DNA of 32,000 nucleotides. Origin: Candidatus Saccharimonadota bacterium (lineage in GTDB: Bacteria > Patescibacteriota > Gracilibacteria > UBA1369 > 2-02-FULL-48-14). Numbering within the stretch: the stretch's first letter is position 1; each line of letters starts with the position of its first letter. The notes beneath the pieces are model-generated. The model worked only from the letters and a program-made list of their open reading frames with translations, did no database searches and was not told the origin of the DNA. Location of the stretch: NCBI GenBank assembly GCA_041661045.1, contig JBAZVE010000001.1, positions 270,001 through 302,000 of the forward strand, given 5' to 3'. This document shows, in pieces, positions 8,442 through 32,000 of this stretch. The position numbers and the translations under genes are program-made.

Positions 8442-8956
8442 TTCTTATGCTTAACTTGTTTGTTGGATTTGATCGCGTACGCAACGGCGGCCAGCACAAT
8501 CACAAGAGCTCCAACTCCATAAATGATTCTAAAATCTTGTTCGGAGGTGTCTTCGGGAGTTACCACTCCTGCCCCTAAACTTTCCGTGTCCGATTCCGCC
8601 AGAAGGCCGGTGAGGCTGCATATGTAAACTTCAAGCGTACCTTCGAATGAACTGGCGTAGACCATGTATTCTTTGCCTTCTTCAAAGTTAAATCCGCAGT
8701 CACCCCCACCCATGCCCGTATGAACTTGTATGGTGCTACCGTCCACCCCCTTCCATGATTCTATAACCTGGAGGGCAACGGCATACCCATCCTTCACTTC
8801 TTCAATCTCCAAAACTTTCCCGCTGAATACGGCCTCGGCATTTACCATTTCTTCTTGAGGCGTTCCGGGCATGATGCAACTACACGCATAAGCGGGCTGA
8901 ACCTGAGCAGTGAAGAGTGCTGAGAAAACGACAGTGGCGAGGAGAAGTTTTTTCAT
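8438..8956 (-). CDS. Secreted, C-terminally membrane-anchored protein with a TIMP/NTR-like N-domain signature
   Basis: Signal peptide MKKLLLATVVFSALFTAQVQPAYA with an AxA cleavage site. The predicted mature N-terminus is CSCIMPGTPQEE...AVFSGKV. It has only four Cys (C25, C27, C87 in GGGDCGFNF, C113 in YICS). A C-terminal TM helix (IIYGVGALVIVLAAVAYAI) is followed by KSNKQVKHKK. Confidence 0.75.
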   Translation of the reverse strand: MKKLLLATVVFSALFTAQVQPAYACSCIMPGTPQEEMVNAEAVFSGKVLEIEEVKDGYAVALQVIESWKGVDGSTIQVHTGMGGGDCGFNFEEGKEYMVYASSFEGTLEVYICSLTGLLAESDTESLGAGVVTPEDTSEQDFRIIYGVGALVIVLAAVAYAIKSNKQVKHKK

Positions 8957-8978: not shown

Positions 8979-9347
8979 TTATAATAATTTAGCTAAATCT
9001 TTATCGAAAGTCAGAACTTTATGGCTCTGTGAAAAATAGTGAAGACTTTGATCTTGGAACGAAAGCTTCTTATGGGAATTCGCGAGGAAATATCGAATCA
9101 TCTCTTTTGTGAAATTTTCAGAGCTGAACCATATTTCCACATCACCGGAATTCAAGGCCATTTGAAGAAATTGGTCTGCTATTTTCTTCCCCACATGCAA
9201 AGTCAGCACATTCACCACTTCTATTAGAATGTGTTCGGGGATAACAATGGTTTCATGGATTTGATCAAAAATTTGTGAGGCCTTGGAGTGCTGTGAGTCA
9301 TCGATATTCAAGGCGGCGATCCAAATATTTGCATCCAGAATCAACAT
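8979..9347 (-). CDS. vapC: PIN-domain ribonuclease toxin (VapC-like)
   Basis: MLILDANIWIAAL... carries the conserved N-terminal Asp, with further acidic positions (IPEHILIEV, SFQDQ, TFDKD). The 122-aa size fits. It lies 3 nt downstream of a small antitoxin-like ORF. Confidence 0.8.
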   Translation of the reverse strand: MLILDANIWIAALNIDDSQHSKASQIFDQIHETIVIPEHILIEVVNVLTLHVGKKIADQFLQMALNSGDVEIWFSSENFTKEMIRYFLANSHKKLSFQDQSLHYFSQSHKVLTFDKDLAKLL

Positions 9348-9660: not shown

Positions 9661-10431
9661 CTATTCAGCCTGGCAACCGGGATCAGCACTACCGGCCGTC
9701 TTTTCAAATTCTCCGTTTGAATCATCTTCGTAGAAGGCACCCGGTTTGAAGAATGTTTCATAAGCACGGTTAACAATCACTGCGGCTTCGGCACGAGTCA
9801 AAGTATTTTCTGGTTTAAAAGGGTATCCATATTCTTCAAAACCTCGGATGATGTTGTAGAAAGAAGCCGTATTAATGGAAATCCATTTCTCACGCAAATC
9901 CTCATCTTCCGCCCAATCCATAATATCTTGCAAACTGCCACCGTCCGACTCGGTAATACATTCGTAAGGATTTACCGCATTCATCAGAATGATTGCCGCG
10001 TTCACCCTGGAGATGGGTGTATTCGAGTAACGAACAAGTGAATTGGAGCCGTCGTAAGACGAATTGTAGTCAATATCCGGCTCCGTCTTGTCGAAAAGAT
10101 CTATGATCCAGGCTGTATTCACATATTCGTAGAACCAATCGTCCTCACTCACCCATTGCACGCTACTGGCGTCGTATTTATCCAGGTCGATGCCTGCTGT
10201 TTCAGTGACCATTTTTATAAATTCAGCGGTTGTCACCGTACTATCGGGATCGTAACTGTTTGCGCTTTTACCGGACACGATCCCCAACTCATAAATGTCT
10301 TTGATGTCTTCGTAAGCCCAATGGTCCGTACTCACATCGGAAAATGGCAAGTCGGAAGCGGCTACTGAGTGAATTTGAAAAAGAAAAAATACAAAAGAAA
10401 AAGCTAAAAGGGAGCTTATTTTTCCGAACAT
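9661..10431 (-). CDS. Secreted S-layer-homology (SLH) domain protein
   Basis: Signal peptide MFGKISSLLAFSFVFFLFQIHSVAA. SLH motifs include FSDVSTDHWAYEDIKDIYELGIVSGKSANSYDPDSTVTTAEFIKMV and, near the C-terminus, FKPENTLTRAEAAVIVNRAYE. Confidence 0.8.
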   Translation of the reverse strand: MFGKISSLLAFSFVFFLFQIHSVAASDLPFSDVSTDHWAYEDIKDIYELGIVSGKSANSYDPDSTVTTAEFIKMVTETAGIDLDKYDASSVQWVSEDDWFYEYVNTAWIIDLFDKTEPDIDYNSSYDGSNSLVRYSNTPISRVNAAIILMNAVNPYECITESDGGSLQDIMDWAEDEDLREKWISINTASFYNIIRGFEEYGYPFKPENTLTRAEAAVIVNRAYETFFKPGAFYEDDSNGEFEKTAGSADPGCQAE

Positions 10432-10490: not shown

Positions 10491-12056
10491 TTAGTGCTTA
10501 AAACTCCTAATTCCGGTGCAAACCATGGTCATGCCGAGTTCATCGGCTTTTTTGATGACTTCTTCGTCACGAATGGACCCGCCCGGTTGGATGATGGAGT
10601 GAATACCGGCGGCGTGAGCCTCTTCCACAGCATCCGGGAAAGGGAAAAAGGCATCGGAGGCCATAACGGACCCGGGAACACGGTCGCCGCCTTTGCGTTT
10701 TGCAATGATGACGCTATCTACGCGAGACATTTGTCCGGCTCCGATTCCCGTTGCGCTGCAGCCCCCCTTGCTGTTCTTTTTGGCGAAAACCACGGCGTTG
10801 GATTTTACATGTTTCACAAGGATTCGTGCGAAAAGCATTTCTTCAATTTCATCCGGGGTGGGCTCTTGCTGGGTGACGACTTTGAGATCTTTTTCCGTCA
10901 CAACAAATTGATCGGCGTTCTGTACCAAAATCCCACCGGAAACTGTTTTGATGCTGCGTTGATTGGGGTTGCGGCGGAGCTCCCCGGTCTCCAGTAAACG
11001 AAGATTTTGCTTTTGGCTCAGGAGCTCGAGCGCGCCTTTTTCAAAATTTGGACAAATTATAATTTCCACGAAGAGTTTTTTGTCCACAATGTACTGGGCA
11101 ATTTCTTGGGTGCAGGGGCGATTGAGAGCAATCACGCAACCAAAAGCCGCCATGGGGTCCACCGAGTGGGCCTCAACAAAAGCGTCCGTAATGTTGTCAG
11201 CTGTGGCGGCCCCACAAGGGTTTGTGTGCTTTATTACTGCGGCTGCCGGCTTGTCAAAATCTTTGACAAGTTCCAGTGCCCCGTCGGCATCAATGATGTT
11301 ATTGAATGACAATTCTTTCCCCTGCAAAACCTTGGCATTGGTGACATTTGGGAAGTGATCGGTGGGGTCACGGAAAAAGACCGCCTTTTGGTGAGAATTT
11401 TCTCCGTAACGAAGTTTCATTACCTTTTCGTAATGCAAATCGAGCAGCTCCACCGGCTCTCCTTTGGTCCGTAAATATTCCGCAATGGCGTGATCGTAAT
11501 GGTTGGTTTTTTCAAAAACTTTGATGGCGAGATTGCGGCGAGTCTCTGCGCTTATCCCGCCTTGCTTCAACTCTTCAATGATCAAGGCATAGTCTTTTAT
11601 GGCGGTAACTGCGGTCACAAATTTGAAGTTCTTGGCGGCGGAGCGAAGCATGGCCGGGCCCCCGATGTCGATTTGCTCAATGGCTTCTTCCTCTGTAATT
11701 CCTTCTTTTTCCACGGTCTCGCTGAAGGGGTAGAGGTTGATGATGACCATATCGATGGGCTTGATTCCATTTTTTTCCGCCACTTCGTCATCCTCGCCGC
11801 GGCGCATCAAAATGCCGCCGTGCACCAGGGGATGCAGAGTTTTGACGCGGCCACCCATCATTTCCGGGAAGCCGGTATAGTCGGAAACATCGGTTACTTT
11901 AATGCCCGCCTCTTTGAGTGCTTTTGCGCTTCCTCCCGTCGATAAAATCTCCGCCCCGTGTTCGATGAGTGCTTCTGCCAGAGGGATCAGGTCCGTTTTG
12001 TCGGACACACTGATCAGGGCGCGAGCAATTTTGCGAACTCCAGTGAGAGGATTCAT
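10491..12056 (-). CDS. purH: Bifunctional AICAR formyltransferase / IMP cyclohydrolase PurH
   Basis: [65 protein letters not shown] (MGS-like IMPCH domain). The C-terminal AICARFT domain ends ...[28 protein letters not shown]. Full length at 521 aa. Confidence 0.95.
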
Positions 12057-12082: not shown

Positions 12083-12313
12083 TCATGGCAGGTCAAGCCC
12101 CCCTTTGCTCCACGGGTTGCAGCGGAGGATGCGCCAGAGACCTTTGAGGCTGCCACGAATGGCTCCATATTTGCCAATGGCCTCGTGAGTGTAGGCACTG
12201 CATGAGGGAGTGAATCGACAAAAACCCCCGGGGAAAATGTGCCGTAGCCAAGAGTGATCCGGGGAGAGGGTCACCTGATAGAGTCGGATGAGGAGTTGAA
12301 GGAGGGTCACCAT
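12083..12313 (-). CDS. yidD: Membrane protein insertion efficiency factor YidD
   Basis: 76 aa with [11 protein letters not shown]....[19 protein letters not shown]...[17 protein letters not shown], the YidD signature. Confidence 0.9.
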
Positions 12314-13497
12314 ACGCCCATTACGCTTGGAGATATTTTGGTTCCGTTGTATTCAAGCTCGAAGTGCAAGTGGATTCCGGTGGCTCCGTAGACACGGCCG
12401 GTGTTCCCCATTTTTCCAATGGCCTGGCCCTGAGAAACCGTGTCTCCAACAGTTACGAAAATAGCCTCCATGTGGGCGTAGTGACTCTTGTAGCCATCGC
12501 CGTGGTCGATCCAAATATTGGTTCCATATCCTCCATCCCATCCTCCGGCAGATGCGTAAACCACGGTTCCGGACCCTGCTGCCAAAATGGGGGGCTGACT
12601 GCGGTCGGCCACATCATACGCGTAATGCCCGGCACGGTATCCTTGAGTGATTTTTCCTTGTGTGGGGCGAATCCAACCCTCGGCGCTGGGAGTGATGTCG
12701 TACTGAATAGTGGTGGGAAGATAGGACCCTCCGACATATCCGTAATCTTTGCTCTTGGAGTTGGTGTTTGCGATGTAAACCGGTGCTTCCGGTCGACCGT
12801 CCACAATAAAAATCTCTTCCCCTTCCGTGAGTTGACTATCGTCTTCAATGCCGTTGAATTCCTTGGTCTTATCCAGGCTTCCCTTGTATTTGTCCATGAG
12901 TGAAACCAGCGAGCTGCCTGCCGGGATTTTTACATAAATTCCATCTTTTGGAGGAATGGTGAGGACCTGGCCCACTTTTAAATAATCGCTGTTCCCCAAA
13001 CTTGTGTTGAGGTAGCGGAGGGAGCTCACTGAAACTCCCCAGCGGTAGGCGATCATCGAAAGGGTTTCTCCGGCTTGAACCTCATGCTCCATGCGTTCAC
13101 TGCGGTTTTGATCGTAGGTTCCCTCTCCCTCCAAGGGCATGTTTTTAATAATGTACCCCTCTTCATCCGTGATGTACGAGCCGGTGGTCTCCAGAGAAAG
13201 GTACTCTTTTCCCACATTTTCCCCTCCTGAGGAGGCGGCGGTGGTGTTTACAGAGGTGAGCAGCAGCAAAAAGATGCTGAAGGATGCCATTTGTGTGTAA
13301 AGACGACGGGGGGCGGGCATGCGATCCAAGGGATGCATGAATTGAGAAAGTCGCCTACCCGAAGGTAAGAGAAGGAAAAAGAGCTTTTGGGCTCCCCTCT
13401 TGAGGTGAAACCAAACTTGTCCCGGAAGAGTCTGATAATGGCCTTCGAAAAGTTTACGGTGTCGTTCTTTTCGGGCTTCTGTATTGACCTTACTCAT
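12307..13497 (-). CDS. LysM-domain M23 family peptidoglycan endopeptidase
   Basis: LysM: [27 protein letters not shown]...VGQVLTIP. M23: GHYAYDVA...GTVVYA...[21 protein letters not shown]...[17 protein letters not shown]. The ORF stays open to 14100, but that part is antisense to mutL. ATG 13497 (MSKVN...) is preceded by an extended -10 and is my preferred start. Alternatives are ATG 13338, 13320 and 13290, just before the hydrophobic anchor [13 protein letters not shown]. Confidence 0.8.
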
Positions 13498-13504
13498 CTT
13501 GTGA

Positions 13505-13513
13505 ATTCTTGCA
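13505..13513 (-). promoter_or_regulatory. Extended -10-like element TGcAAGAAT, 7 nt upstream of ATG 13497
   Basis: Minus-strand reading is atttttgTGCAAGAATtcacaagATG. Confidence 0.35.
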
Positions 13514-13539
13514 CAAAAATGGACGGGTGGCAAGGGGGG

Positions 13540-13548
13540 TGCTAGATT
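13540..13548 (+). promoter_or_regulatory. Extended -10 TGcTAGATT, 6 nt upstream of the mutL ATG (13555)
   Basis: ggggggTGCTAGATTctggatATG. A weak -35 TGGACG at 13520-13525 has 17-nt spacing. No SD sequence. Confidence 0.45.
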
Positions 13549-13554
13549 CTGGAT

Positions 13555-15258
13555 ATGCAGACCATCCATTTGCTTCCGCAGGAACTCATTAGTCAAATCG
13601 CCGCGGGGGAAGTGATTGAACGACCGGCCAGTGCGGTGAAAGAGCTGGTGGAGAACGCAATTGACAGTGGCGCCACGCAGATTGGCATTGAAATCGAGGC
13701 GGGTGGACTCCGGAAAATTCGAGTGGTGGACAATGGCTGTGGAATGACGGTGGAGGATGCACGACTGGCGTTTACGCGGCACGCCACCAGTAAAATTGTG
13801 GCCTTGGAGGATTTGCTCCGCCTGAGGAGTTTGGGTTTCCGTGGAGAAGCTTTGGCGAGCATCGCCAGTATTGCGCGGGTGAATTTGAAGACGAGGCGGA
13901 GTGAAGATGTGGTGGGGACGCAAGTGGAAATGGATGGCGGGCGAGAGGAGCTTTTTGAACCGGTGGCGTGCAGCAGTGGAAGCGATTTCACCATTTATGG
14001 GCTTTTTGAACACACCCCGGCGCGAAGAAAATACATGAAGTCCGAATCCACGGAGTATGGACATATTTTTGACCTCCTGTGTGCCATTGCCCTGGCCCAT
14101 TCAAGTGTGGGCTTTCGACTCAAAAAAGACGGGGTGGAGGTTTTTGATTTGCCCGCGGCGCAGAGTATAAAAGACCGCGTACGGGTTTTGTTTGGAGGAG
14201 GCACGGCCAACGCTCTTTTGCCTTTGCGTTACGACCAGTCCAATTTCACGGTGAGCGGATACATAGGGAAGCCCGAGCTTGCGAGGGCGACCAAGAAATA
14301 TCAGTATTTATTTGTGAATGGGCGATGCATCGAAAATCGTTTGGTGAGTCACGCGGTAAAAGAAGCGTTTCATTCGCTGCTCATGCATGAAAAAAATCCG
14401 TGGTTTATTGTTGATATTCAAATGGATCCGGCTTTGGTGGACTGCAATGTGCATCCACGAAAACTGGAGGTGCGATTCGTCAATTCACAAGAAGTGCATC
14501 ACATTATTTTTGGCGCGGTGAAGCATGCTTTGGAAAATAATTTGTTGACTCCTTTGATTCAATCGGCGAACATTCGCACGGAGTCTTTGCTCGATAAAGT
14601 GCAGAATTTTGAACCTCTTTTGGTGGGTGGACCGGCGCCGTTGGGGGAACAGGTGCTGGATTTCTCGGTGCAGGGACTTGCCTTGCGGCCCCTTGTACAA
14701 ATCGCGCGATCCTACATTGTGGCGGAGAGTGAGGAGGGTCTGGTGCTGATCGATCAACACGCGGCCCACGAACGAGTACGATACGAGCGGCTGATGCATG
14801 CCCTTGAAAACAAGCGCGATTTGAAACAAGTGCTGTTGACTCCTTTGGAGCTGGACTTGGGCGTGGACAGCCAAAGACTGATTCGAGAAAATCGTGAAGA
14901 TTTTGCGGCATTGGGTTTTGAGTTTGAGGAATTCGGCGGCTCTAGTTTTGTGGTTCGCAGCATTCCGGCCGGACTCGAAAAAAGAGACCCTGAACGGGTG
15001 ATTCAAGAAATTTTGGCTGATTTTACCGCAGAGTGGAAGCAAAACCGTGTGCACCGCAATTTGGAGAGCCTCGCCACCATGACGGCGTGCCGTGGTGCCA
15101 TCAAGTTTGGGGATACGCTCACCCTGGGAGAGATGCAGGCTTTGGTGAAAGACATGCAGGAAACCAAAAATGCCACCCACTGCCCTCATGGCCGACCCTC
15201 CATGATTTCTTTCAGCTACGACAAATTGGAGACCTTGTTTAAACGGAGGAATTTTTAG
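13555..15258 (+). CDS. mutL: DNA mismatch repair endonuclease MutL
   Basis: The N-terminal GHKL ATPase region reads IHLLPQELISQIAAGEVIERPASAVKELVENAIDSGAT. The C-terminal endonuclease motifs are DQHAAHERVRYE, ACRGAIKFGD and CPHGRP. Confidence 0.95.
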   Translation: MQTIHLLPQELISQIAAGEVIERPASAVKELVENAIDSGATQIGIEIEAGGLRKIRVVDNGCGMTVEDARLAFTRHATSKIVALEDLLRLRSLGFRGEALASIASIARVNLKTRRSEDVVGTQVEMDGGREELFEPVACSSGSDFTIYGLFEHTPARRKYMKSESTEYGHIFDLLCAIALAHSSVGFRLKKDGVEVFDLPAAQSIKDRVRVLFGGGTANALLPLRYDQSNFTVSGYIGKPELARATKKYQYLFVNGRCIENRLVSHAVKEAFHSLLMHEKNPWFIVDIQMDPALVDCNVHPRKLEVRFVNSQEVHHIIFGAVKHALENNLLTPLIQSANIRTESLLDKVQNFEPLLVGGPAPLGEQVLDFSVQGLALRPLVQIARSYIVAESEEGLVLIDQHAAHERVRYERLMHALENKRDLKQVLLTPLELDLGVDSQRLIRENREDFAALGFEFEEFGGSSFVVRSIPAGLEKRDPERVIQEILADFTAEWKQNRVHRNLESLATMTACRGAIKFGDTLTLGEMQALVKDMQETKNATHCPHGRPSMISFSYDKLETLFKRRNF

Positions 15259-22445: not shown

Positions 22446-23788
22446 ATCAAGCCCCCTTTCAAATAAAAAGTGTCGGCTTCGGTGACGCGGACGGTGGCGA
22501 GTTTGCCTAGGAGAGGGCGGTTGCTGCGGAACTCTATTTCTTTGAATTCGCGCGTGCGGCCACGGCAGCTTTGGCCGATTTGTTCGGTGACTAACACTTC
22601 CACCGTGCGGCCTATAAAAGCCTGGTGTTTTTTGTTTGAAATTGTTTTGAGCAGATTGTTGAGGCGATGCCAACGGGCTTCTTTGAGTTCGTGAGAAATG
22701 TCGTCGGGGAGGCTTTTTTGGGAATAGGTGCCTTTGCGGGGCGAGTAGCGGGAAATGAAGCAGGTGTCCCATTCCATTTCCTCATACATTTTGAATGTGT
22801 TTTCAAATTCTTCGTCTGTTTCGCCGGGGAAGCCCACAATGATGTCTGTGCTGATGGCACAGCCCGGAATGGCGGCCTGGATTTTGCGCATGATGGTTTG
22901 ATATTCCGGTGCGGTGTAGTTGCGATTCATGCGGCGAAGAATGCGGTTGTCGCCGGACTGGACCGGCATGTGAATGTAGGGACAAATGGTTTCGAGGCTG
23001 GCGAGCGTTTGGATGAGTTCATCGGTGAAATCGCGGGGGTGGGGCGAAGTGAAACGGAGACGGCTCAGGCCGGAGCTCTTTAGTTTGTCGATTTCGATGA
23101 GAAGGGCTGAGAAAGGGCTCTTGCCGTAGGCGGTGAATTTTCCGGATTTTTTGTCGTTGAAACTGAGCCCGTACGAATTCACGGTTTGTCCAACGAGGGT
23201 GATTTCGAGTGCGCCTTCTTCAACATGTTTCTTGCATTCGGCCACAATGTCTTCGAAGTCGCGACTCATTTCGCGGCCACGGGTGAAGGGCACGATGCAG
23301 TAGGTGCAGAACTTGTCGCAGCCGGTCATGATGGGCACAAAAACGCTGGCACCTGTGGATTTTTTGGGTGCGATTTTAAAGTAATTTTCTAGGGTGCCTT
23401 CGTCGATTTGATCGGAGAAATCGAGGCTTGAATCCACTTGTTTGAGCAGCTCCGGAAGGCGGGCCACTTCTTCAATTCTAAAAACAAAATCCACTTCCGG
23501 CATCCTCTTTAAAAGTTGGTCTTCTTGGGTTCCGGTGCTACGAATCATGCAGCCGGTCACGGCGATTTTTAGAGCAGGATTTTCTTCGTGGAGCTTGGCT
23601 AAAATTTTACGGAGCCCGTAGACCCTGTCTTCCGCTTTTTGCTTCACGCTGCAGGTGTTGAGCACCAAAAGGTCGGCGTGGTTTTGGCTTTCGGCTGTTT
23701 CGTAGCCCAGTCGCTCAAGGACGCTCGCGACCCTTTCGGAATCGGAGCTGTTCATGGCGCAACCGTAAGTCTGAATAAAGTACTTCAC
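22442..23788 (-). CDS. miaB: tRNA-i6A37 methylthiotransferase MiaB (radical SAM MTTase)
   Basis: FIQTYGCAMNSSDSERVASVLERLGY (MTTase N-domain), CDKFCTYCIVPFTRGRE (radical SAM CxxxCxxC) and a C-terminal TRAM-like segment. The GTG start overlaps the upstream stop as GTGA. Confidence 0.88.
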   Translation of the reverse strand: MKYFIQTYGCAMNSSDSERVASVLERLGYETAESQNHADLLVLNTCSVKQKAEDRVYGLRKILAKLHEENPALKIAVTGCMIRSTGTQEDQLLKRMPEVDFVFRIEEVARLPELLKQVDSSLDFSDQIDEGTLENYFKIAPKKSTGASVFVPIMTGCDKFCTYCIVPFTRGREMSRDFEDIVAECKKHVEEGALEITLVGQTVNSYGLSFNDKKSGKFTAYGKSPFSALLIEIDKLKSSGLSRLRFTSPHPRDFTDELIQTLASLETICPYIHMPVQSGDNRILRRMNRNYTAPEYQTIMRKIQAAIPGCAISTDIIVGFPGETDEEFENTFKMYEEMEWDTCFISRYSPRKGTYSQKSLPDDISHELKEARWHRLNNLLKTISNKKHQAFIGRTVEVLVTEQIGQSCRGRTREFKEIEFRSNRPLLGKLATVRVTEADTFYLKGGLI

Positions 23789-24252
23789 AGGCCGAAGATA
23801 GCAGACGCAAGCGAATAAGGGAACTGTTTTCGGCGCTCACTATAGCGGGAAATGGCTTCCAGACGGTCTGCTTTTTGCTTTTCGATGAGTGTCGAAATAT
23901 CCTCGATGTCTTTTTTTGCGTCTAAAAAGTGGAGCGACCGGCAAGGAGTTTGCTGAACGAAAGCCAGTAAAGTTCCTTCGAATTCCAATTCTTTTTCTTG
24001 AGGCTGTGGTGATAAAAAGAGCGCGCGGATTTCGGCCAGTTTGGTCCATGCATCCGTAACGCCGACTTCCTTCCGTGCGCTTTCCAGCAAGTACGGCACA
24101 ATGTCACGACGGTGTTCAAAATCGTGCTTCAGCAGGGCTTCGCGAGTTTTTACTTCACGGAGCTCATGGGCCACGCTTTGCCTCAGCCAAATGAGGACGA
24201 TGAATCCCAGTATGGCGGCGGCAATAAGGATAAGAATGAGATTTTCAATCAT
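23785..24252 (-). CDS. lemA: LemA family membrane protein (short form)
   Basis: N-terminal TM helix. DFEHRRDIVPYLLESARKE and the C-terminal RLEAISRYSERRKQFPYSLASAIFGL resemble LemA signatures (RR-DLIPNLV ... YN..v..yN..i..FP...iA..fGf). Confidence 0.6.
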   Translation of the reverse strand: MIENLILILIAAAILGFIVLIWLRQSVAHELREVKTREALLKHDFEHRRDIVPYLLESARKEVGVTDAWTKLAEIRALFLSPQPQEKELEFEGTLLAFVQQTPCRSLHFLDAKKDIEDISTLIEKQKADRLEAISRYSERRKQFPYSLASAIFGL

Positions 24253-24796
24253 GGTGTGGGGTGGTTTTATCGCGCAAATCTAAAAGTGCCCGTGCATTTT
24301 CGTAAGGCCTGCTGACAAAATCGATGACGAAAAAAATGTCGGAAGCAGAAGTTTGAATTTCAATCTTTCCGTAATGAAAAATGCTTTGCCAAAATCCTTT
24401 TTGGATCCCGGTAACATCTTGAATCTGGCCTAAATTGGCCTCTGAAACTTGACGATGGAAAAGGTCGATTTGCTCGTGAGAAATGATGCGATTTTCGGTG
24501 GCTACAATAATGTCCAACTCTTCATTGAGCCACTTGATAAAGGTGATCAAAAGAATAACGAGCAAGTACGCGGTAAAGCCCATGGCCACACTCAAAAAAG
24601 TATCGTTCCACCCTTGATCCAAAATGAGCACTTCCGCCACCACGGCTATTAAAAGGGGTAGGAAGCCAATCACAAAAAGTGTGATGCCAATCCTCACATC
24701 GATGATCCAGTGCTTTCGAATCACCAGTTTGATGTGCTCTCCTTCTTTTTGACCGGGGAAACGGTGATTGCCGTAGTCGTTGGTCTTATTCTTCAT
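24245..24796 (-). CDS. Membrane protein with a bacterial PH-like (YdbS/YdbT, bPH_2-type) domain
   Basis: FPGQKEGEHIKLVIRKHW, then two TM helices, then IVATENRIISHEQIDLFHRQVSEANLGQIQDV...GKIEIQTSA. This layout is typical of bPH_2 proteins. Confidence 0.5.
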   Translation of the reverse strand: MKNKTNDYGNHRFPGQKEGEHIKLVIRKHWIIDVRIGITLFVIGFLPLLIAVVAEVLILDQGWNDTFLSVAMGFTAYLLVILLITFIKWLNEELDIIVATENRIISHEQIDLFHRQVSEANLGQIQDVTGIQKGFWQSIFHYGKIEIQTSASDIFFVIDFVSRPYENARALLDLRDKTTPHHD

Positions 24797-25865
24797 GAGA
24801 CTTCAGTTGGCTTAAAAAAATGTTGAGTGATTTTTTCCATGAGAAGCGCGCAGCCGCTTTTTTTTGCGCAGCCACGACGGACTTTCTGCGCGCGGGATCT
24901 TCCAATAACATGAGTGTATCAGAGAGACCTTCTTTAAGCGAGTCGAGGGACTCGGATTTGGGAAGGAAGAGGGCGGAATCGTTGGAAATTTCACGGTTCA
25001 CGGGTGTGTCCCTTACAATGGCAGGAATTCCGATGCTCATGGCTTGCAGGAGCGGAATATTGAAGCCTTCCGAGTCTGAAAAATGCAAGAAAGCTTTAGC
25101 GGATTTGAGTGCGGAATACACTTCTTCATCTGGTAAAGCACCCAAGAAATAGGTATAGGGATACTCCGGAACTTCCGGGTACAGTTTGGACCTGTGCAGG
25201 GCGGTGCCGATGAGCATCAGACGGGGCGGATGCTTGAGTCCCGCAACGGTTTCCACCATTTGAGGAACATTTTTGCGAATGTCGTAACCTCCCAAATAAA
25301 CCAGGGCCTCTTTTGAGTCCCTATTGGCGGGAATATTTTTTGGCATTTCCGGAATCGCATTCGGCAGGACCTTTGCGGCAGGTATGCCGAGTTCTTTATG
25401 AATGGCGGCGGATACGGTGAAAAGGAGATCCATGAACACCAAACTGCGACGCGCCTGACGGTGGTAGTAGCGTTTCAAGCGGTTTCCTTTATAGCGAGGA
25501 TCCTTCCACAAAATGAGATCGTGCACGGTCATGGCACGACGATGAGGCGATTTTTCGGGGAGCGGACAAGGGTAAGGATAGTATTCCCAATCCAGTTTTT
25601 CTTGTGCAAAAAACTGGGGCACTTGCACGCGCTCCCAATACCACTTTTTAAGCGCTCCGTGCAGTAGAAACTTTTTGGGTTTTATTGTGTGAAGCCATTT
25701 TTTTGGGATTCCCTTGGGTAGGTTTTTTGGCGAGAGTCTTTCCGGGATCACCACGATGCATTCCAAGCCCTTTTCTTTTGCCAACTCTCTGAGCAAGCCC
25801 AAGCAATGCTGGCCGATGCCGGTGTAGGGTTTTGTGACGAACCAAGCTTGAAAGCCGATCTTCAT
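24786..25865 (-). CDS. Family 4 (GT-B, GT1-type) glycosyltransferase
   Basis: The N-terminus TGIGQHCLGLLRELAK and the C-terminal FLHFSDSEGFNIPLLQAMSIGIPAIV (EX7E-type motif) fit the family. Confidence 0.85.
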   Translation of the reverse strand: MKIGFQAWFVTKPYTGIGQHCLGLLRELAKEKGLECIVVIPERLSPKNLPKGIPKKWLHTIKPKKFLLHGALKKWYWERVQVPQFFAQEKLDWEYYPYPCPLPEKSPHRRAMTVHDLILWKDPRYKGNRLKRYYHRQARRSLVFMDLLFTVSAAIHKELGIPAAKVLPNAIPEMPKNIPANRDSKEALVYLGGYDIRKNVPQMVETVAGLKHPPRLMLIGTALHRSKLYPEVPEYPYTYFLGALPDEEVYSALKSAKAFLHFSDSEGFNIPLLQAMSIGIPAIVRDTPVNREISNDSALFLPKSESLDSLKEGLSDTLMLLEDPARRKSVVAAQKKAAARFSWKKSLNIFLSQLKSHEE

Positions 25866-26908
25866 GTAAGGGTGTGGGCAATAATTTGAGTTGCATTTTG
25901 AGTGGCGCGCGGAGGACGAGGCGGCCGTTTGGGCAAGGCCGCGAGTTGCTCGCGGAGCGGGAGACTTGTGTCACCGATTCGATAATATTTGCTTTTTTTG
26001 CAGAGGGCCTTCGCGTTGGCCACTTGATCTCCCCTGCTCGCATTCATGCCCAAGGGGAAAAGCAGCGCGGGAATCTGCAGGGCTTCCAGTTCTGCCAAAG
26101 CGCCGGCCCCGGCGCGAGTGAGCGCGAGCGAAGCGAGCGCGTAGAGATCCTTTATTTCTTCCCCCACAAAAGGCACCGCAATAAAGTCTTTTTTGCGTAC
26201 TGCGGCCGATCCGGCTCCACCATTTTTTCCTTCCCCCGTGATGTGCACCACGGCATACTCCTCCATAATCGCCTTCTTCTCTTTTTCAATTTTTTTGTTG
26301 ATTTCCAAAGACCCGCTGCTCCCGCCCATCACCAAAAGCACCGGTTTCTTTCCCACAAAACCCGCCCACTTCCTGGCTGCCGCGGCACTGCCTTCAAACA
26401 AATCTTCTCGCACAGGGTTCCCCACCGTTTGGAGCTTTTTCTTGTACCGTTGCAACCCCTTTTCCGCCTCCGCATATCCCAAAAAAATCTTCCGTGCAAA
26501 CGGCGCGCACAATTTTGTGGCCAGCCCGGGAATGGCATCGGACTCATGGATATAAACCGGAATCCCAATCATCCCCGCGGCCAAAACCACCGGCACCCCC
26601 ACAAATCCTCCTTTGCTAAAAACCACACTTGGCCGCAGCTTCAACAATTTCAAAAAAGCCTGGGCCGTTCCCAGCGGAATCTTTAATAGATCCACCCCGT
26701 TTTGCACGGCAAAATATCTTCTCCATTTTCCGGTGAGTATGCCTTCAAAAGGAAGTCCCGCCGCTTCCGCCAGTTTTCGCTCCATTCCCCCGTAAGACCC
26801 CATATAGGTGACTTTGGTCTTGGGGCTAGCTTCTTTGATAGCGCGAGCGATAGCGAGATTGGGGATGATGTGTCCGGCCGTTCCCCCTCCGGTCAAGAGT
26901 ATATGCAT
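25862..26908 (-). CDS. murG: UDP-GlcNAc:undecaprenyl-PP-MurNAc-pentapeptide GlcNAc transferase MurG
   Basis: MHILLTGGGTAGHIIPNLAIARAI..., VVFSKGGFVGVPVVLAA, LVMGGSSGS and RAGAGALAELEALQIPALLFP are MurG signatures. Confidence 0.93.
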   Translation of the reverse strand: MHILLTGGGTAGHIIPNLAIARAIKEASPKTKVTYMGSYGGMERKLAEAAGLPFEGILTGKWRRYFAVQNGVDLLKIPLGTAQAFLKLLKLRPSVVFSKGGFVGVPVVLAAGMIGIPVYIHESDAIPGLATKLCAPFARKIFLGYAEAEKGLQRYKKKLQTVGNPVREDLFEGSAAAARKWAGFVGKKPVLLVMGGSSGSLEINKKIEKEKKAIMEEYAVVHITGEGKNGGAGSAAVRKKDFIAVPFVGEEIKDLYALASLALTRAGAGALAELEALQIPALLFPLGMNASRGDQVANAKALCKKSKYYRIGDTSLPLREQLAALPKRPPRPPRATQNATQIIAHTLT

Positions 26909-28079
26909 AATTCGTGGTGTACTTAGAAATGTTGAGCAGCACTCCCACCCCCACCAATGTCATCACCATCGAAGATCCTCCGTAACTCATGAATGGCAGC
27001 GTGATCCCCGTGATGGGAAACAAGGCGGTGTTGACCATGATATTAACGAAGGCTTGAGCTGAAATCCAGGTGGTAATGCCGGCAGCCATCAGCATGGAAA
27101 ACTTGTTTGGGGCATGATTGGCAATCTGGAAGCCACGATACGCGATCACGGCGTAGAGCAAAACCAGTCCTGCCGTTCGCAAAAATCCCAGTTCATTGGC
27201 GCTTGCGGCAAAAATAAAGTCGTCCACCGCCTGCGGAAGCCAGTAATATTTTTGAGTTCCTTGCGTGAGCCCCTTCCCCCAAAAACCTCCGCTTCCAATG
27301 GCAATATTCGCCTGCCGAGTTTGCCAACAATAACTTTCCCCTCCACTCTCATAGCTGCAGGCTTCTTCCGGGTTCAAAATAGCATTCACGCGATTGTTGA
27401 TGTGAGTTGTGGTGGCGTAAGCCAAGATCGAAAGCATCATGCCCAGCACCATCAAGGCCGCCAAATGTCGCCAATTCGCCCCCGCCAAATAGTAAATAAC
27501 CACGGCAATAATGGAGAGCACCATGGCGGAGCCAATGTCCGGCTGCAAGACAATCAAACCGATAATTGTTCCGGCAATCAGCCCAAACTTTAAGAATCCC
27601 TCTTTTAAATCTTGCGTTTTTTCCACCGATATTTTTTCTGCGAAAAAATAGCTCAAATAAAAGATCAGTCCCAATTTTGCGATTTCCGAGGGCTGGACCG
27701 AATCCACAAAAGGCAGCGCCCCTCCCACATTGATCCAACTGGTGGCAAAGGTGTTGTTGTCACTTCCCGCAAAGAGCACAAAGACCAAAAGTCCCGCCGC
27801 CGCAATGTACAAAACGGGCCCCAACACTTTCCAATATCGATAATTCATCTTCCACGCCACCAGCATCCCCACCAAGCCAATCCCCGCGCGCGCCACATGA
27901 TTTTTCAAAATCAAATAACAATCCACCGCCGCATCCGCGCAATCCGGATATTTCATGTCCGGCGCCGAAATCTTAATCGACTTGGGCACTCCCACACTGG
28001 TGATCATGATCACTCCAATCGCCACCACCGCCAAAACCGCTATGAGTAAAACCGTATCGTATTTGCTTCGTTTGAACAT
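26826..28079 (-). CDS. ftsW: SEDS-family peptidoglycan glycosyltransferase FtsW (FtsW/RodA)
   Basis: About 10 TM helices. QPSEIAKL, ASNELGFL and ITGITLPFMSYGGSSMV motifs are present. It is adjacent to murG. The 3' end overlaps the murG start by 83 nt. Confidence 0.9.
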   Translation of the reverse strand: MFKRSKYDTVLLIAVLAVVAIGVIMITSVGVPKSIKISAPDMKYPDCADAAVDCYLILKNHVARAGIGLVGMLVAWKMNYRYWKVLGPVLYIAAAGLLVFVLFAGSDNNTFATSWINVGGALPFVDSVQPSEIAKLGLIFYLSYFFAEKISVEKTQDLKEGFLKFGLIAGTIIGLIVLQPDIGSAMVLSIIAVVIYYLAGANWRHLAALMVLGMMLSILAYATTTHINNRVNAILNPEEACSYESGGESYCWQTRQANIAIGSGGFWGKGLTQGTQKYYWLPQAVDDFIFAASANELGFLRTAGLVLLYAVIAYRGFQIANHAPNKFSMLMAAGITTWISAQAFVNIMVNTALFPITGITLPFMSYGGSSMVMTLVGVGVLLNISKYTTNYAYTLDRRGNGRTHHPQSRYRSRYQRS

Positions 28080-28101
28080 AGTCTGCTAAAAGCGCCCAGC
28101 C

Positions 28102-28130
28102 AGTGTAGCGAAGACTTGAATGTTTGGGAA
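28102..28130 (-). promoter_or_regulatory. Weak candidate internal promoter upstream of ftsW: -35 TTCCCA, 17 nt, -10 TACACT
   Basis: Minus-strand reading is cTTCCCAaacattcaagtcttcgcTACACTggctgggcgcttttagcagactATG. Confidence 0.25.
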
Positions 28131-28158
28131 GACAGAGCTGTTGTGAATATCCTCTTTT

Positions 28159-30786
28159 TTAAGCAGCCATTTTTTTGACGACGCTCGCACTCATGGCCAG
28201 CAAGAGATTTTTATAAAGCTCACGAAGTCTTCTGTTCCCTTCGATGGCTTCTTTATTTTTTGCTGCCACCAAATGATTCTCAATTTGATCTAATCTTGTA
28301 ATGATGTCCAGCGCAAGGTTTTGTATCATGGAGAAAGTTAAAGTATCGGTGGGCTTTGCTCCCAAAAGGCCTGCAACGATATTCTTCAGTTCTTGCGCTT
28401 CAGTAATTGTGATCCTTCGGAATGCAAGAGTGGGATCCTTTAATTTCACTTGGGCTTCTACCCACCTCGTATCGGTGCTGCTTTGAACTTTTTCAAAGAA
28501 GCTTACCCACTCCGTTTCCGGCAAACTTAGAATTTGTGGCCCCATGCTACTAAAATCGGGATCCTTGGCTACTTTCTTCGTAACTGTGAAGAGCTTCTCC
28601 GCGCGGTCGTCTTTCAAAAGTGCTTCTGCTATAAGGCTTAAATCATTCCATAATTCTGTGAATTTAGGCTCAAGACTTGGGCGTATCCCTTTTACCTTGT
28701 CAAAGGCTTCTCCAAAGTCTTTGAACACCTCTACAATGCTTCTACTGCTAACGGACCCAATGTTTTGGGCTACGAATATGCGGACTTCCTGCTTGGCATC
28801 GTCCTTTTCTTCGGGCGTTCCTGATGTCAGCACCTTTTCCATTTCACTTGCGCTCATCAAATATTTAAAGTGTCTCCCCATCTTTGAGGACCGGTACCCT
28901 CTAATATGAGCGGCGATCTCTTGGGGCTCTTCCAGTTCTGGGAAGTGTTCCAGGAATACTTCGGGAGCTAAAACGATGGTCTGCGCAAAAAGTTTTTCAA
29001 TGATGGCCGGAGTCAAAGCGGTGTCGACTGCTCCCAGTATGATCACTATGGCGTTTGCCTTTGTCTCTTCTTCGGAGCCTGCCGGCCAAGTCCCCACTTT
29101 CATCTGCTTTTTAAGGGCCTGAATTCCTCGTTTAATGTCCCTGGCTTCAAAAGGTTGCTCTATGTCGTAGAGCGCGCATACTTGCGCTTTGAGCTTCATT
29201 TTTCCTCCTTCCGTATCCATAAGATCCGGCTTGAGTGTTGGGATGACGCCGTTGAATGTTCCTTCGAGTACATCAGCATCCCACCCCTTAAGACAGGCCG
29301 ATATATTTTTGTCGTTTGCTTCTGTAAAGAGCGTGCGGCCAAAGGCTCTGTATCGATCCTTGTTCCATTCGAACTTGGTTTTTTCCAGCTCTGGATCAGG
29401 GTAGAGTGTTTTGAGGGTATCTTCTGTGAGCAATGTTTCCGCCTTTGTGATCAAGGCAATGATTGCGTCCCGGGTTGCGGTGTAATCATTCAATTTTGCG
29501 TTAGTGCTCCAATCCACCCCTTCTCTCAGTCTTGCCCTCATTTGTGCAGCCCGAGCGATGAGTTTTTGTTTCGTGATTCTTCCGCTTAGGTTGAAGAGAT
29601 TTTGCACCTCATTCCTAAGATCCTGTGGGTTGTTGTCCAACTCCGAAGCCACTGATGCAGCGTCCAAAATGTCTCCCACTCTTACCTCAATATCGTCTAC
29701 GCCATTCTTTTTATTGGTGTGGAAGAAGGGGCGAATATTTTTGTCATTTATTTTCAAAATGCAGTCTCCGATGTTTGCGTAATCCATGGGGAAGTCTTCA
29801 ATGGTTTCTCCCGTCCCGTAGAGGGTTTCCAGGTTTTTTTCGGTGAGCCAAGCTCGAGCGTGTCCAATAATATGAATCAGCGCATGGTGTTGCGCGTGCA
29901 CTCTGGAGTTCACATGACCGCCCAAGAGCTCCAACAAAAGGGTGGTTTGTTGTTCCACTTCCTTTCTATCTATTTCTCCCGAGAGATCTAAAAGATTTGC
30001 CATTTCTTTCTTGATTTCTTCTTGGCCAGCGGGACGAGTGAGGGCTCGGGAAAAACGATCTTGGTCTACAAACATTTTGAAGGTCCGTTCGAGATTTTCT
30101 ATATTCAAGCCCTTGCAGAAGCCATCCAAAGCGTGATGATCGAGGGCGCGATTTCCTTTCTTTTCAGCTTTTTTGTCTCTGGGCAGTTGATGCATGATTT
30201 GGTCTCCGATGTGTTGTTCATCGGTTTTGGTTTCATGAATGGGAGCGAGACCTAGTTTGTCCCGGGCAAGCTTGAGTGCTTTTGCGATCCAAGGGCCTGC
30301 AACGCCAAGAAGTGAAGCGTGACCCATGGCATGGATGAAGGCGTCTGAAAGATCCACCTCGTGTTCGCCCTCTTTCTTCCCATGCTCGTCGTCGCCCAGC
30401 CCCAGTTTTGCGAGGGCGGCAGCGCCCACTGTTTGGAGGAATCCTCCTTTGGGGCCGTGATCCACTGCCTCTCCGGCTGCGGCTTCTCCGGTTGCTTCTC
30501 CCACAGCGGCTTGCGCTTTGGGATGTGCACCAGGTTTGGGATGTGCGCCGGGTTTGGGATGTGCGCCGGGTTTGGGGTAACTTCCCTCGTTATTCGCGGC
30601 GGGTTCTTCTGGCGGGAAAGTTTCTTTAAATGCGCCTACCGTTGCCCCTTCTACGAGGTCTTTAAATGATTCTGCAATCCCAAGAATCCCTCCGTGTTTA
30701 AAATGTCGAGTATTATTCGCCGCCTCCACTGGAGCTGCCTCCGGTGCGGCATGGGGTGTTCCGACATGTTTTGCTTTTTCAGACAT
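28159..30786 (-). CDS. Large (875 aa) repeat-module protein of unknown function
   Basis: Uninterrupted ORF with an ATG start and no signal peptide. The N-terminal 210 aa are low-complexity (A/P/E/G/K-rich, PKPGAH x3). The rest is helical-looking with a recurring ~132-aa module. I recognise no catalytic motif. Confidence 0.8.
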   Translation of the reverse strand: MSEKAKHVGTPHAAPEAAPVEAANNTRHFKHGGILGIAESFKDLVEGATVGAFKETFPPEEPAANNEGSYPKPGAHPKPGAHPKPGAHPKAQAAVGEATGEAAAGEAVDHGPKGGFLQTVGAAALAKLGLGDDEHGKKEGEHEVDLSDAFIHAMGHASLLGVAGPWIAKALKLARDKLGLAPIHETKTDEQHIGDQIMHQLPRDKKAEKKGNRALDHHALDGFCKGLNIENLERTFKMFVDQDRFSRALTRPAGQEEIKKEMANLLDLSGEIDRKEVEQQTTLLLELLGGHVNSRVHAQHHALIHIIGHARAWLTEKNLETLYGTGETIEDFPMDYANIGDCILKINDKNIRPFFHTNKKNGVDDIEVRVGDILDAASVASELDNNPQDLRNEVQNLFNLSGRITKQKLIARAAQMRARLREGVDWSTNAKLNDYTATRDAIIALITKAETLLTEDTLKTLYPDPELEKTKFEWNKDRYRAFGRTLFTEANDKNISACLKGWDADVLEGTFNGVIPTLKPDLMDTEGGKMKLKAQVCALYDIEQPFEARDIKRGIQALKKQMKVGTWPAGSEEETKANAIVIILGAVDTALTPAIIEKLFAQTIVLAPEVFLEHFPELEEPQEIAAHIRGYRSSKMGRHFKYLMSASEMEKVLTSGTPEEKDDAKQEVRIFVAQNIGSVSSRSIVEVFKDFGEAFDKVKGIRPSLEPKFTELWNDLSLIAEALLKDDRAEKLFTVTKKVAKDPDFSSMGPQILSLPETEWVSFFEKVQSSTDTRWVEAQVKLKDPTLAFRRITITEAQELKNIVAGLLGAKPTDTLTFSMIQNLALDIITRLDQIENHLVAAKNKEAIEGNRRLRELYKNLLLAMSASVVKKMAA
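30517..30577. repeat. 18-bp tandem repeat, 3.4 copies (TTTGGGATGTGCRCCRGG)
   Basis: Units are at 30517-30534, 30535-52 and 30553-70, with a partial unit at 30571-77. Units 2 and 3 are identical. On the minus strand it encodes YPKPGAH-PKPGAH-PKPGAH-PK. Confidence 0.95.
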
Positions 30787-30797
30787 AGTGGTTTTAT

Positions 30798-31973
30798 TTA
30801 GTGCTTAGCGGCGGGTGCGGCAGGAGTTTTTTTCGGGGCGGCGGATTCTTCTTTGGCCTCCGGTTTTGCATCAGGTTTTTCAAAAAGTGATAGTTCGGGG
30901 ACAGTCCAGTCGGCGCCAACGAGGTCATGAGAGATTGTGTTGGTGACCCCTTCCCCCACTCCAAAGAGACCAAGAGCAAGGGCGGTGGGAATGGCAAAGG
31001 CGGTTTGTTTGGTTCGATACCAAGCGGCGGCAAGCCTGTTCCCTGCCCATTTGAAGGGCTTTGTGTACCATTTTTTACCGGGCTTATTGGCGGGTTTGTC
31101 TGGTTTACTGGCGGCCCATCTTGCGGCCTGGTACGCTCTCACAAATGGGGTGCTCACCATGCGGCCAGTGGCACGGATTGGATTTACAATCAAACTCTCG
31201 GCGACGGTTTTTGTGAAATCGACCCCTCCGGAGACGAAGTTTACTGCGGCATTTCCACCCAAGCGAAGGCCATTCCAGGCAAAGCGCGCCACTGGAGGTA
31301 CCACTGCACGGAGACCTAAGAATCCGAGCGTTCCACCACCAATCACTGTGGCAGCTCCCAATGCTCCTGCAGCCAGGGCTCCGAATGCGCCATACTTGAG
31401 GCCGGTTACAACGCCGGATCCAATGCTTGCACGACGATTCCAAAGCCAACCGATTCCTTTGCCGGGAGCGGTTAAGACTTGCTTCAAACCGGATCCGGTG
31501 ACAGCCAAAGCTTTTCCCCCTGTTTCTTTTGTCTTTCTGCCTCTTTCTCCCCAGTTTTCTTCATTCTTGGCTTTACGAATGGCGGCACGAGTGAGGTCAT
31601 CCAGCTCAGCATTGGAAATATCCACTCCCACCATTTGAGTAACGATGTCTGCACGAACAGCGGCTTCCAAGGCAGCGCCTGTTAAGCTGGCCGCAATGTG
31701 CGTTTTTGCAAATCGGTCTAAGCTCTTCATAAACACCACTTTTTCCGCTATTTTTTTATTGAAAGCGGAGTATCTGGACTGCTCGGCAGCGTAGATCGAC
31801 ATTTCTTCCGCTTTTGCCTCTCCGGCAAATAACCTTGCGAGCTCTTCGCGAATTTCATTCTCTAGAATGGTTTTGTCTTTCCCCACGCCTTGTTCTCGTC
31901 TCAACCGTGCCAGACGGAAGGCCCCCATCTCCATCATTTTTGTATCCCAAGCGTTTTCTTCTTTTAATGGCAC
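30798..31973 (-). CDS. Gly/Ala-rich membrane protein of unknown function (the start may lie beyond the window end)
   Basis: The ORF-track start is a GTG at 31973, and the frame stays open to pos 32000, so the gene may be 5'-truncated. Hydrophobic Gly-rich segments include YGAFGALAAGALGAATVIGGGTLGFLGL and TAFAIPTALALGLFGVGEGV. The tail is lysine/proline-rich (PDAKPEAKEESAAPKKTPAAPAAKH). It lies 11 nt upstream of the 875-aa gene. Confidence 0.7.
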   Translation of the reverse strand: MPLKEENAWDTKMMEMGAFRLARLRREQGVGKDKTILENEIREELARLFAGEAKAEEMSIYAAEQSRYSAFNKKIAEKVVFMKSLDRFAKTHIAASLTGAALEAAVRADIVTQMVGVDISNAELDDLTRAAIRKAKNEENWGERGRKTKETGGKALAVTGSGLKQVLTAPGKGIGWLWNRRASIGSGVVTGLKYGAFGALAAGALGAATVIGGGTLGFLGLRAVVPPVARFAWNGLRLGGNAAVNFVSGGVDFTKTVAESLIVNPIRATGRMVSTPFVRAYQAARWAASKPDKPANKPGKKWYTKPFKWAGNRLAAAWYRTKQTAFAIPTALALGLFGVGEGVTNTISHDLVGADWTVPELSLFEKPDAKPEAKEESAAPKKTPAAPAAKH

Positions 31974-32000
31974 GAGCGCATTGAGTCTGCTTTTTCTATT

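Follow-up and report, generated by a model that had tools for sequence, protein, structure and literature searches.

In Firmicutes, EzrA is a membrane-anchored regulator of FtsZ-ring assembly that is built of spectrin-like helical repeats. In the division and cell wall (dcw) cluster of bacteria the genes follow the order mraZ...murD-ftsW-murG...ftsZ, with murD usually preceding ftsW. We analyzed a stretch of 32,000 nt (contig JBAZVE010000001.1, positions 270,001 to 302,000; hereafter the window) from a genome catalogued as Candidatus Saccharimonadota bacterium, in which the gene directly upstream of ftsW-murG encodes a protein of 875 amino acids (aa) made of tandem modules. Our best reading is that this modular protein belongs to a pair of proteins confined to the uncultivated Peribacteria and works together with the product of the gene immediately upstream, referred to here as the partner. 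Cell division and envelope growth are poorly known in the Candidate Phyla Radiation, and the locus offers a concrete, testable candidate for a clade-specific factor.

Five tandem modules in the 875-aa protein

The gene for the modular protein is an open reading frame (ORF) on the minus strand (28159 to 30786, with the stop codon at 28159 to 28161). It had come to attention through a reading of the letters of the window (the original prediction), which proposed about five tandem modules with a period of ~132 aa, marked by a recurring motif. On recheck the ORF and its 875-aa length proved exact, and so did the quoted positions, i.e., the motif at residues 259, 391, 533, 665 and 797, the anchors LTEKNLETLY (residue 314), LTEDTLKTLY (453), INDKNI (346) and ANDKNI (490), the three PKPGAH units (71, 77 and 83), the His-rich stretch at residue 296 and both hydrophobic patches.

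A BLASTP self-comparison gave the identity match alone, with no repeats visible. The periodicity was shown by Smith-Waterman alignments calibrated against shuffles and by profile hidden Markov models (HMMs). Module 1 aligned to module 2 with z = 12-14 against shuffles, and the remaining pairs of modules within the window protein were not significant on their own in these alignments. A profile HMM iterated from a single seed (residues 314 to 452) over the relatives converged on a core of 90 positions, with copies at residues 184-288, 330-420, 473-562, 608-693 and 741-832. Because such iteration is circular, leave-out profiles were also made. The profile built from modules 1 and 2 of the other proteins found modules 3, 4 and 5 of the window protein at E 1e-6, 1.5e-3 and 0.011, and that built from the two most distant relatives (P0016 and P0017) found modules 1 to 5 at 1e-12, 8e-13, 8e-6, 4e-5 and 0.039.

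The protein thus comprises five tandem homologous modules, all encoded on the minus strand: module 1 (class A; residues 184-329, positions 29800 to 30237; independent E-value, i-E, 1.6e-22), module 2 (class D; residues 330-472, 29371 to 29799; i-E 5.7e-23), module 3 (class C; residues 473-601, 28984 to 29370; i-E 5e-16), module 4 (class B; residues 602-738, 28573 to 28983; i-E 2.4e-15) and module 5 (divergent; residues 739-875, 28162 to 28572; i-E 7e-11 with the full family HMM). Since the leave-out profiles still match modules 1 to 4, the homology of these four is beyond reasonable doubt. Module 5, which reached 0.011-0.23 in the leave-out tests, is a divergent terminal module; marginal by sequence, it is supported mainly by its spacing, which is correct, and by a helix pattern similar to that of the other modules. 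Module 1 contains in addition a Lys-rich loop and a His-rich linker (residues 296-310, positions 29857 to 29901).

These results bear out the periodicity that was originally proposed and refine it in two respects. The repeats are real, but their length is not fixed at ~132 aa: it ranges from 129 to 146 aa here, with a family-wide median of ~139 over 81 modules. The motif is likewise real but out of phase, as it lies at core positions ~59-78, near the C-terminal end of the core, and the modules start ~75 residues ahead of it. At the DNA level, the only repeats visible are an 18-nt repeat encoding PKPGAH and a 15-nt echo of NDKNI, 432 nt apart, and the module duplications are therefore ancient in this genome. 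The module HMM matched neither the partner nor any other ORF of the window, nor any ORF of the loci described below.

An all-helical module fold with no match among known families

With an alignment of 62 modules, AlphaFold2 modelled module 2 as an all-alpha domain of 11 short helices (predicted local distance difference test, pLDDT, 96.8; predicted template modelling score, pTM, 0.89). In the full-length model, residues 180-875 were mostly at pLDDT 85-95, and the confidence dipped at residues ~330, 470, 600 and 737, i.e., at the module borders. These dips, together with a pTM of 0.32 for the whole chain, suggest that the modules are independently folded domains arranged as beads on a string. 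Conserved module positions fall mostly in the hydrophobic core, the exceptions being a Y-x-x-F-G start, a pair formed by a basic residue, any residue and Gln, and a loop Gly, and no catalytic signature is apparent among them.

The original prediction had assigned the protein to no family, and this held: Pfam gave nothing at E <=0.1 for the window protein and nothing for five homologs, and neither NCBIfam nor PHROGs matched the modular protein. Its homologs stand in public records as ‘hypothetical protein’, and no description of the protein was found in the literature. The structural comparison gave the same result: Foldseek with a single module returned nothing at E <=1e-3 from the PDB (best E 0.68, TM-score ~0.3) or from BFVD (best E 0.41), and the full-length model returned nothing at that threshold from the PDB, only HEAT-solenoid matches that do not superpose. 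The domain family is new in sequence and, so far as Foldseek shows, also in fold. Whatever its function, the module (pLDDT ~97, all-alpha) is a candidate for a new Pfam domain family and a target for structure determination.

Two other candidates were rejected. A phage or mobile-element protein, e.g., a tape measure, is not indicated, with no match in PHROGs, in 50,697 phage records searched by tblastn or in BFVD, and with a chromosomal locus that is stable. A profile search of PDB sequences gave marginal matches to calmodulin and to designed helical proteins, which were dismissed after a check of the ligand positions.

The N-terminal region

The N-terminal 210 aa had been described as disordered-looking. 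Disorder is indeed predicted, but over a shorter extent: residues 1-146 have pLDDT <50, and module 1 already begins at residue 184. Within this region lies a conserved motif (residues 26-56, positions 30619 to 30711, minus strand; TRHFKHGGILGIAESFKDLVEGATVGAFKETF) of the form HF-x-x-GG-x-x-G...G-x-T, in which F29, G32, G33, G36, G47 and T49 are invariant in the family alignment. Residues 34-56 are predicted as a helix at low pLDDT and might serve as a docking or membrane helix. The motif is followed by a disordered linker rich in His, Pro, Ala and Gly (residues ~57-144), where the homologs are His-rich and of low complexity and where the window protein carries, at pLDDT <50, the three PKPGAH units, encoded by 3.3 copies of the 18-nt repeat (30517 to 30576, minus strand). 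Next come conserved hydrophobic or amphipathic helices (residues 145-183, positions 30238 to 30354, minus strand; DLSDAFIHAMGHASLLGVAGPWIAKALKLARDKLGLAPIHE), with a KD19 hydropathy peak of 1.15. The full-length model places helices at residues 146-156 and 163-177 with pLDDT of ~50-58, and residues 147-183 are of low confidence. This segment resembles the linker half of a module, and its end corresponds to a KLFPEIHE-like junction.

As originally noted, there is no signal peptide: the N-terminus is polar (MSEKAKHVGTPHAAPE), and no hydrophobic stretch occurs before residue 146. The sole segment with KD19 >1.6 lies inside module 3, so that the protein has no N-terminal transmembrane anchor. Neither a lipobox nor a sortase motif (LPXTG) nor an SLH domain was found in the modular protein by Pfam or, at the N-terminus, by hydropathy. 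The chain ends in ...VVKKMAA, and its composition is acidic, with 0.5% Cys.

Across the homologs, His-rich low-complexity sequence recurs at three places, i.e., the N-terminus of the modular protein, the linker of module 1 and the C-terminal tail of the partner; such partner tails occur in loci L001, L003, L004 and L006, and in the modular gene of the window the corresponding positions are 30238 to 30786 and 29857 to 29901. This recurrence hints at metal binding.

The partner gene and a probable fusion

The partner gene, missed by the original prediction, occupies 30798 to 32000 on the minus strand; its frame is open to base 32000 with no in-frame stop, and it is cut by the end of the window. 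What is present aligns to the C-terminal half of the 800-aa partners found elsewhere, and the protein is therefore truncated by the window. It contains ~55-aa helical repeats, a 27-aa uncharged Gly/Ala segment (~31311 to 31400), a basic stretch of ~100 aa, a second hydrophobic segment (~30951 to 31004) and the motif GEGxxNxxSxDLxGxDWxxPE, and its own C-terminal tail is rich in Pro, Ala and Lys, not in His. The partners in the other loci (488-1206 aa) share this plan: 2-6 copies of the ~55-aa helical repeat, the conserved 27-aa uncharged Gly/Ala segment flanked by Lys/Arg, the strongly basic ~100 aa, a second short hydrophobic segment, the motif GEGxxNxxSxDLxGTDWxxPE and a tail that is His-rich in most homologs. 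The partner family is just as rare as that of the modular protein, and the partner has no match in Pfam, NCBIfam or PHROGs.

No signal peptide or hydrophobic N-terminal stretch was found in the partner. Lys/Arg residues flank its hydrophobic segments, which enclose a strongly basic stretch. By the positive-inside rule, this basic stretch, together with the lack of a signal peptide and the large soluble N-terminal region, places the partner provisionally at the cytoplasmic face of the membrane, embedded or peripheral, a topology reasoned by hand.

The partner lies directly upstream of the modular gene, at a gap of 9-19 nt, in all ten loci for which context was available, and of the functional associations observed, this pairing is the strongest. 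On the contig of P0017, a single gene of 1354 aa fills both slots between lspA and ftsW. In a profile comparison, residues 344-486 of P0017 are collinear with the C-terminus of the partner (E 0.0015; the score is reached by 2 of 500 shuffles); a BLASTP comparison of the partner with P0017 gave nothing significant, and such support as there is, itself weak, comes from the profile. The similarity is weak but exceeds what composition gives, and P0017 is probably a gene fusion of partner and modular protein, which supports a physical partnership of the two.

Relatives and the order of the locus

Seventeen relatives of the modular protein emerged from an index-free HMMER scan that covered 1.84 billion representative proteins; single-sequence searches had found two relatives of the modular protein and two of the partner. 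All named genomes with relatives are metagenome-assembled genomes of Candidatus Peribacteria, apart from one labelled Gracilibacteria, in agreement with the lineage specificity originally proposed. The neighbouring genes of the window are 72-86% identical to those of these genomes, which assigns the window to the same clade (class Peribacteria, phylum Peregrinibacteriota).

Context was compared at ten distinct loci (the window, L001-L006, L008, L012 and the P0017 contig), and in all ten the order is lspA on the opposite strand, followed by partner, modular gene, ftsW, murG, GT1, bPH-like gene, LemA-like gene and miaB. In the window, ftsW, for the SEDS glycosyltransferase (26826 to 28079, minus strand; Pfam FTSW_RODA_SPOVE, E 2.7e-79), is followed by murG (25862 to 26908, minus strand; N- and C-terminal Glyco_transf_28 domains in Pfam), which overlaps the 3′ end of ftsW by 83 nt. 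The spacer between the modular gene and ftsW (28080 to 28158, minus strand) is 79 nt long, and neither a terminator-like nor a promoter-like site was found in it, as the original prediction had held for the terminator. Synteny extends this picture: the modular gene is co-directional with ftsW-murG in every locus and directly adjacent in eight of the ten, with gaps to ftsW of 42-150 nt.

At the other two loci, L002 and L004, two genes on the opposite strand are inserted between the modular gene and ftsW. The insertions (L002 4274 to 9094; L004 12768 to 17548) are of the same kind, each with a gene of ~700 aa and one of ~900 aa; in L002 the former is a beta-helix protein and the latter gives a faint TPR match. 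They may form a cassette, mobile or variable, that encodes large proteins of surface type. The conserved order spans ~25 kb and takes in unrelated housekeeping genes (miaB, alaS, shikimate dehydrogenase and lspA), and what it reflects is accordingly the narrowness of the clade, not a functional coupling. A scan of metagenome contigs with FtsW, which sought relatives that do not carry the pair, returned two loci only, both with the pair.

Variation in module number and sequence

Full-length relatives carry 4-9 modules. By class, the window protein reads A-D-C-B-x, and relatives read A-D-D-C-B-E, A-D-C-C-B-G-H or A-D-C-B-B-..., architectures that result from lineage-specific tandem duplications of single modules. 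The two C copies of A-D-C-C-B-G-H (modules 3 and 4 of P0003) are 73% identical, i.e., a recent duplication. Identity to orthologous modules drops from the N- to the C-terminus (55, 47, 36, 34 and 22% for modules 1-5), with module 1 the highest of the five (51-62%) and module 5 at 16-29%; over these loci, FtsW retains 72-85% identity. The conserved end of the modular protein is thus its N-terminus, the end proximal to the partner. Several relatives (P0003, P0013 and P0016) end in Lys/Arg-rich tails. The nine-module relative P0004 (L003, 9590 to 14284) has an extra C-terminal domain of ~160 aa (residues ~1407-1564), absent from the window protein, which gives a sub-threshold match to DUF4256 (E 5e-4) and ends ...NVGFRRVVRVASI.

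A proposed scaffold and its alternatives

We propose tentatively, and rate somewhat below an even chance, that the two proteins form a membrane-tethered, probably cytoplasmic scaffold of variable length that is tied to the division or wall machinery. The partner would be embedded in the cytoplasmic face of the membrane or lie on it, and would provide the docking site for the conserved N-terminal region of the modular protein, whose chain of helical domains would project from the membrane as a spacer or scaffold of varying length. Most likely it would serve to arrange or place the machinery for peptidoglycan synthesis and division close to the membrane, with the peripheral enzyme MurG, together with FtsW, as a candidate target. 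A job at this machinery is proposed because the modular gene has the same direction as ftsW-murG, with short gaps and no terminator-like site; it is gene position alone that suggests a role in cell division. Neither protein has a hydrophobic N-terminus, and the modular protein is acidic and poor in Cys, which supports a cytoplasmic location; signal peptides and a high Cys content have been reported for the predicted extracellular proteins of Peribacteria (PMC4736985). If the proposal is true, the scaffold would be a lineage-specific way of organising the divisome within the Candidate Phyla Radiation, and the variation in copy number, in the modular protein and in its partner, would be a natural experiment should the protein act as a spacer or ruler.

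Several points weigh against this proposal. The ~25 kb of unrelated genes in conserved order belong to one narrow clade, and the adjacency to ftsW may be historical; the insertions before ftsW in L002 and L004 show that co-transcription is dispensable. The fast evolution of the distal modules would be surprising if their ligand were FtsW or MurG, both highly conserved. The hydrophobicity of the partner is modest (KD19 maximum ~1.5) and its topology was assigned by hand, and the evidence for a fusion is statistically weak. Of the original inference of a scaffold or cytoskeletal-type factor linked to division or the envelope, the modular build and the lack of a known family stand; the link to division or the envelope and the cytoskeletal role are not established, given the narrow clade behind the gene order and the insertions at L002 and L004, and no filament-forming feature was found in the modular protein.

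The main alternative is somewhat less likely in our estimate: the pair would be a cytoplasmic repeat unit, membrane-associated or soluble, unrelated to division or the wall, and its neighbourhood with ftsW an inherited order. Its role might then be the binding or buffering of metal by the His-rich segments or the scaffolding of another process. The extension of the conserved order to miaB, alaS, lspA and shikimate dehydrogenase, the insertion that parts the gene from ftsW in two of the ten loci, the His-rich low-complexity sequence at three places across the homologs and the much faster evolution of the modular protein than of its neighbours all fit this explanation. It has to contend, however, with a direction shared with ftsW in all loci, short gaps in eight of ten, no terminator-like site in the window and no metal-binding domain signature among the features found; it is also near to a null hypothesis, with no specific prediction that sequence data could confirm. 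If the link to ftsW is merely positional, the protein would be another lineage-specific hypothetical repeat protein, of modest interest; orphan repeat proteins are common in these genomes.

The scaffold proposal can also be put in a sharper form, in which an undescribed fold repeated four to nine times makes, together with the partner, a Peribacteria-specific FtsW-MurG scaffold of adjustable length. In this full form we consider it rather improbable.

Still more doubtful is export by a non-classical route, through a type IV-like system or the partner, with the modular protein acting at the cell surface or on another cell, so that variable module number and fast-evolving distal modules would reflect interaction with a host or the environment. 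Such a role would accommodate the variation in copy number and the rapid divergence of the C-terminal modules, the Lys/Arg-rich tails of several relatives and the VirD4-like coupling protein in the window (2144 to 4387), and the C-terminus of the partner would face outward should its second hydrophobic segment be membrane-spanning; moreover, Peribacteria have been reported to vary large surface proteins (PMC4736985). But the modular protein shows neither a signal peptide or lipobox nor a sortase motif or SLH domain, and with its acidic, Cys-poor composition it differs from what has been reported for extracellular proteins of the clade (PMC4736985); the coupling-protein gene lies 24 kb away in a linkage known from the window alone, and neither viral proteins nor the PDB structures searched gave a match to the module family.

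The idea that the modules bind calcium as degenerate versions of an EF-hand or calmodulin-like unit is already largely refuted and has very little left to recommend it: the module profile marginally matches calmodulin EF-hand 3 (E 0.002-0.08) and the recurring motif lines up with the helix-loop-helix, placing Gly at loop position 6, a hydrophobic residue at 8 and an acidic one at 12, but position 1, a calcium ligand, is hydrophobic in 72 of 81 modules (L in 50, F in 22), so that the modules are not EF-hands, and Gly at position 6 (41 of 81) and E or D at position 12 (40 of 81) occur in just about half, with no EF-hand match in Pfam and no calmodulin among the top Foldseek matches.

Other features of the window

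The 83-nt overlap of ftsW and murG (26826 to 26908) is read in different frames, and L001, L003, L004 and L005 show the same, with the murG match beginning ~77-83 nt before the ftsW match stops; as the basic C-terminal tail of FtsW is conserved, the overlap looks genuine and conserved. After murG-GT1, and in the same co-directional gene string, follow a bPH-like membrane protein (183 aa) and a LemA-like protein (155 aa; together 23785 to 24796), both of which are present in every locus examined.

At the other end of the window, a treble-clef zinc-finger protein (432 to 2081) precedes the VirD4/TraG-like type IV coupling protein, which bears on the export explanation only. Two paralogous DUF1246/DUF1297 genes lie close together (4399 to 5577 and 6100 to 7128) and are presumably archaeal-type PurP enzymes; near this pair is an AICARFT/IMPCHase bienzyme gene (10491 to 12056), which we take to be of the PurH type. 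Genes of these two types fit the reported nucleotide-synthesis capacity of Peribacteria (PMC4736985). Between them are a small protein with a weak TIMP-like match (8438 to 8956), a PIN-domain protein (8979 to 9347) and an SLH-domain protein (9661 to 10431). The longest ORFs for a LysM/M23 peptidase (12307 to 14100, minus strand) and for MutL (13555 to 15258, plus strand) overlap by ~545 nt on opposite strands, and the real start of the peptidase probably lies further downstream.

Comparison with known systems

The modular protein failed every test of membership that was run, and it is therefore not a member of any known family; the likenesses that follow are those of analogy. With EF-hands and calmodulin it shares a local helix-loop-helix sequence pattern around the recurring motif, but the positions that would bind calcium are not conserved, and the structure comparison gave no match. 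With HEAT repeats and other alpha-solenoids, such as SF3B1 and the karyopherins, it shares the build of a long all-alpha repeat protein, and these were the sole, weak matches of the full-length model (best E 3.4e-3). There is no real superposition, however: the TM-scores are 0.07-0.15 and the root-mean-square deviations (rmsd) >20 Å (best match TM-score 0.15, rmsd 22.6 Å), and the repeat unit is a globular domain of 140 aa here but a helical hairpin of 40 aa in HEAT proteins.

By gene position, the closest counterpart is murD of the dcw cluster, since the modular gene lies immediately upstream of ftsW-murG in the same orientation. The suggestion that it fills a mur slot is loosely true in this positional sense, but there is no Mur-ligase signature: the catalytic, middle and C-terminal Mur-ligase domains, or any other enzymatic domain, were not found by Pfam or NCBIfam. 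The slot instead holds two orphan repeat proteins, with lspA divergently upstream.

EzrA differs in that its anchor, an N-terminal transmembrane helix, is part of the same polypeptide, whereas any anchor here would be on the separate partner. EzrA-type and spectrin-type units are three-helix bundles, whereas the modules here have 8-11 short helices, and their number varies between genomes; neither Pfam EzrA (PF06160) nor spectrin matches the modular protein, and no EzrA or spectrin structure is among the Foldseek matches. The two have in common tandem all-helical units of ~100-140 aa and, as proposed here, a membrane tether and a division role at the cytoplasmic face, and for how the modular protein might act, EzrA is the best analogy.

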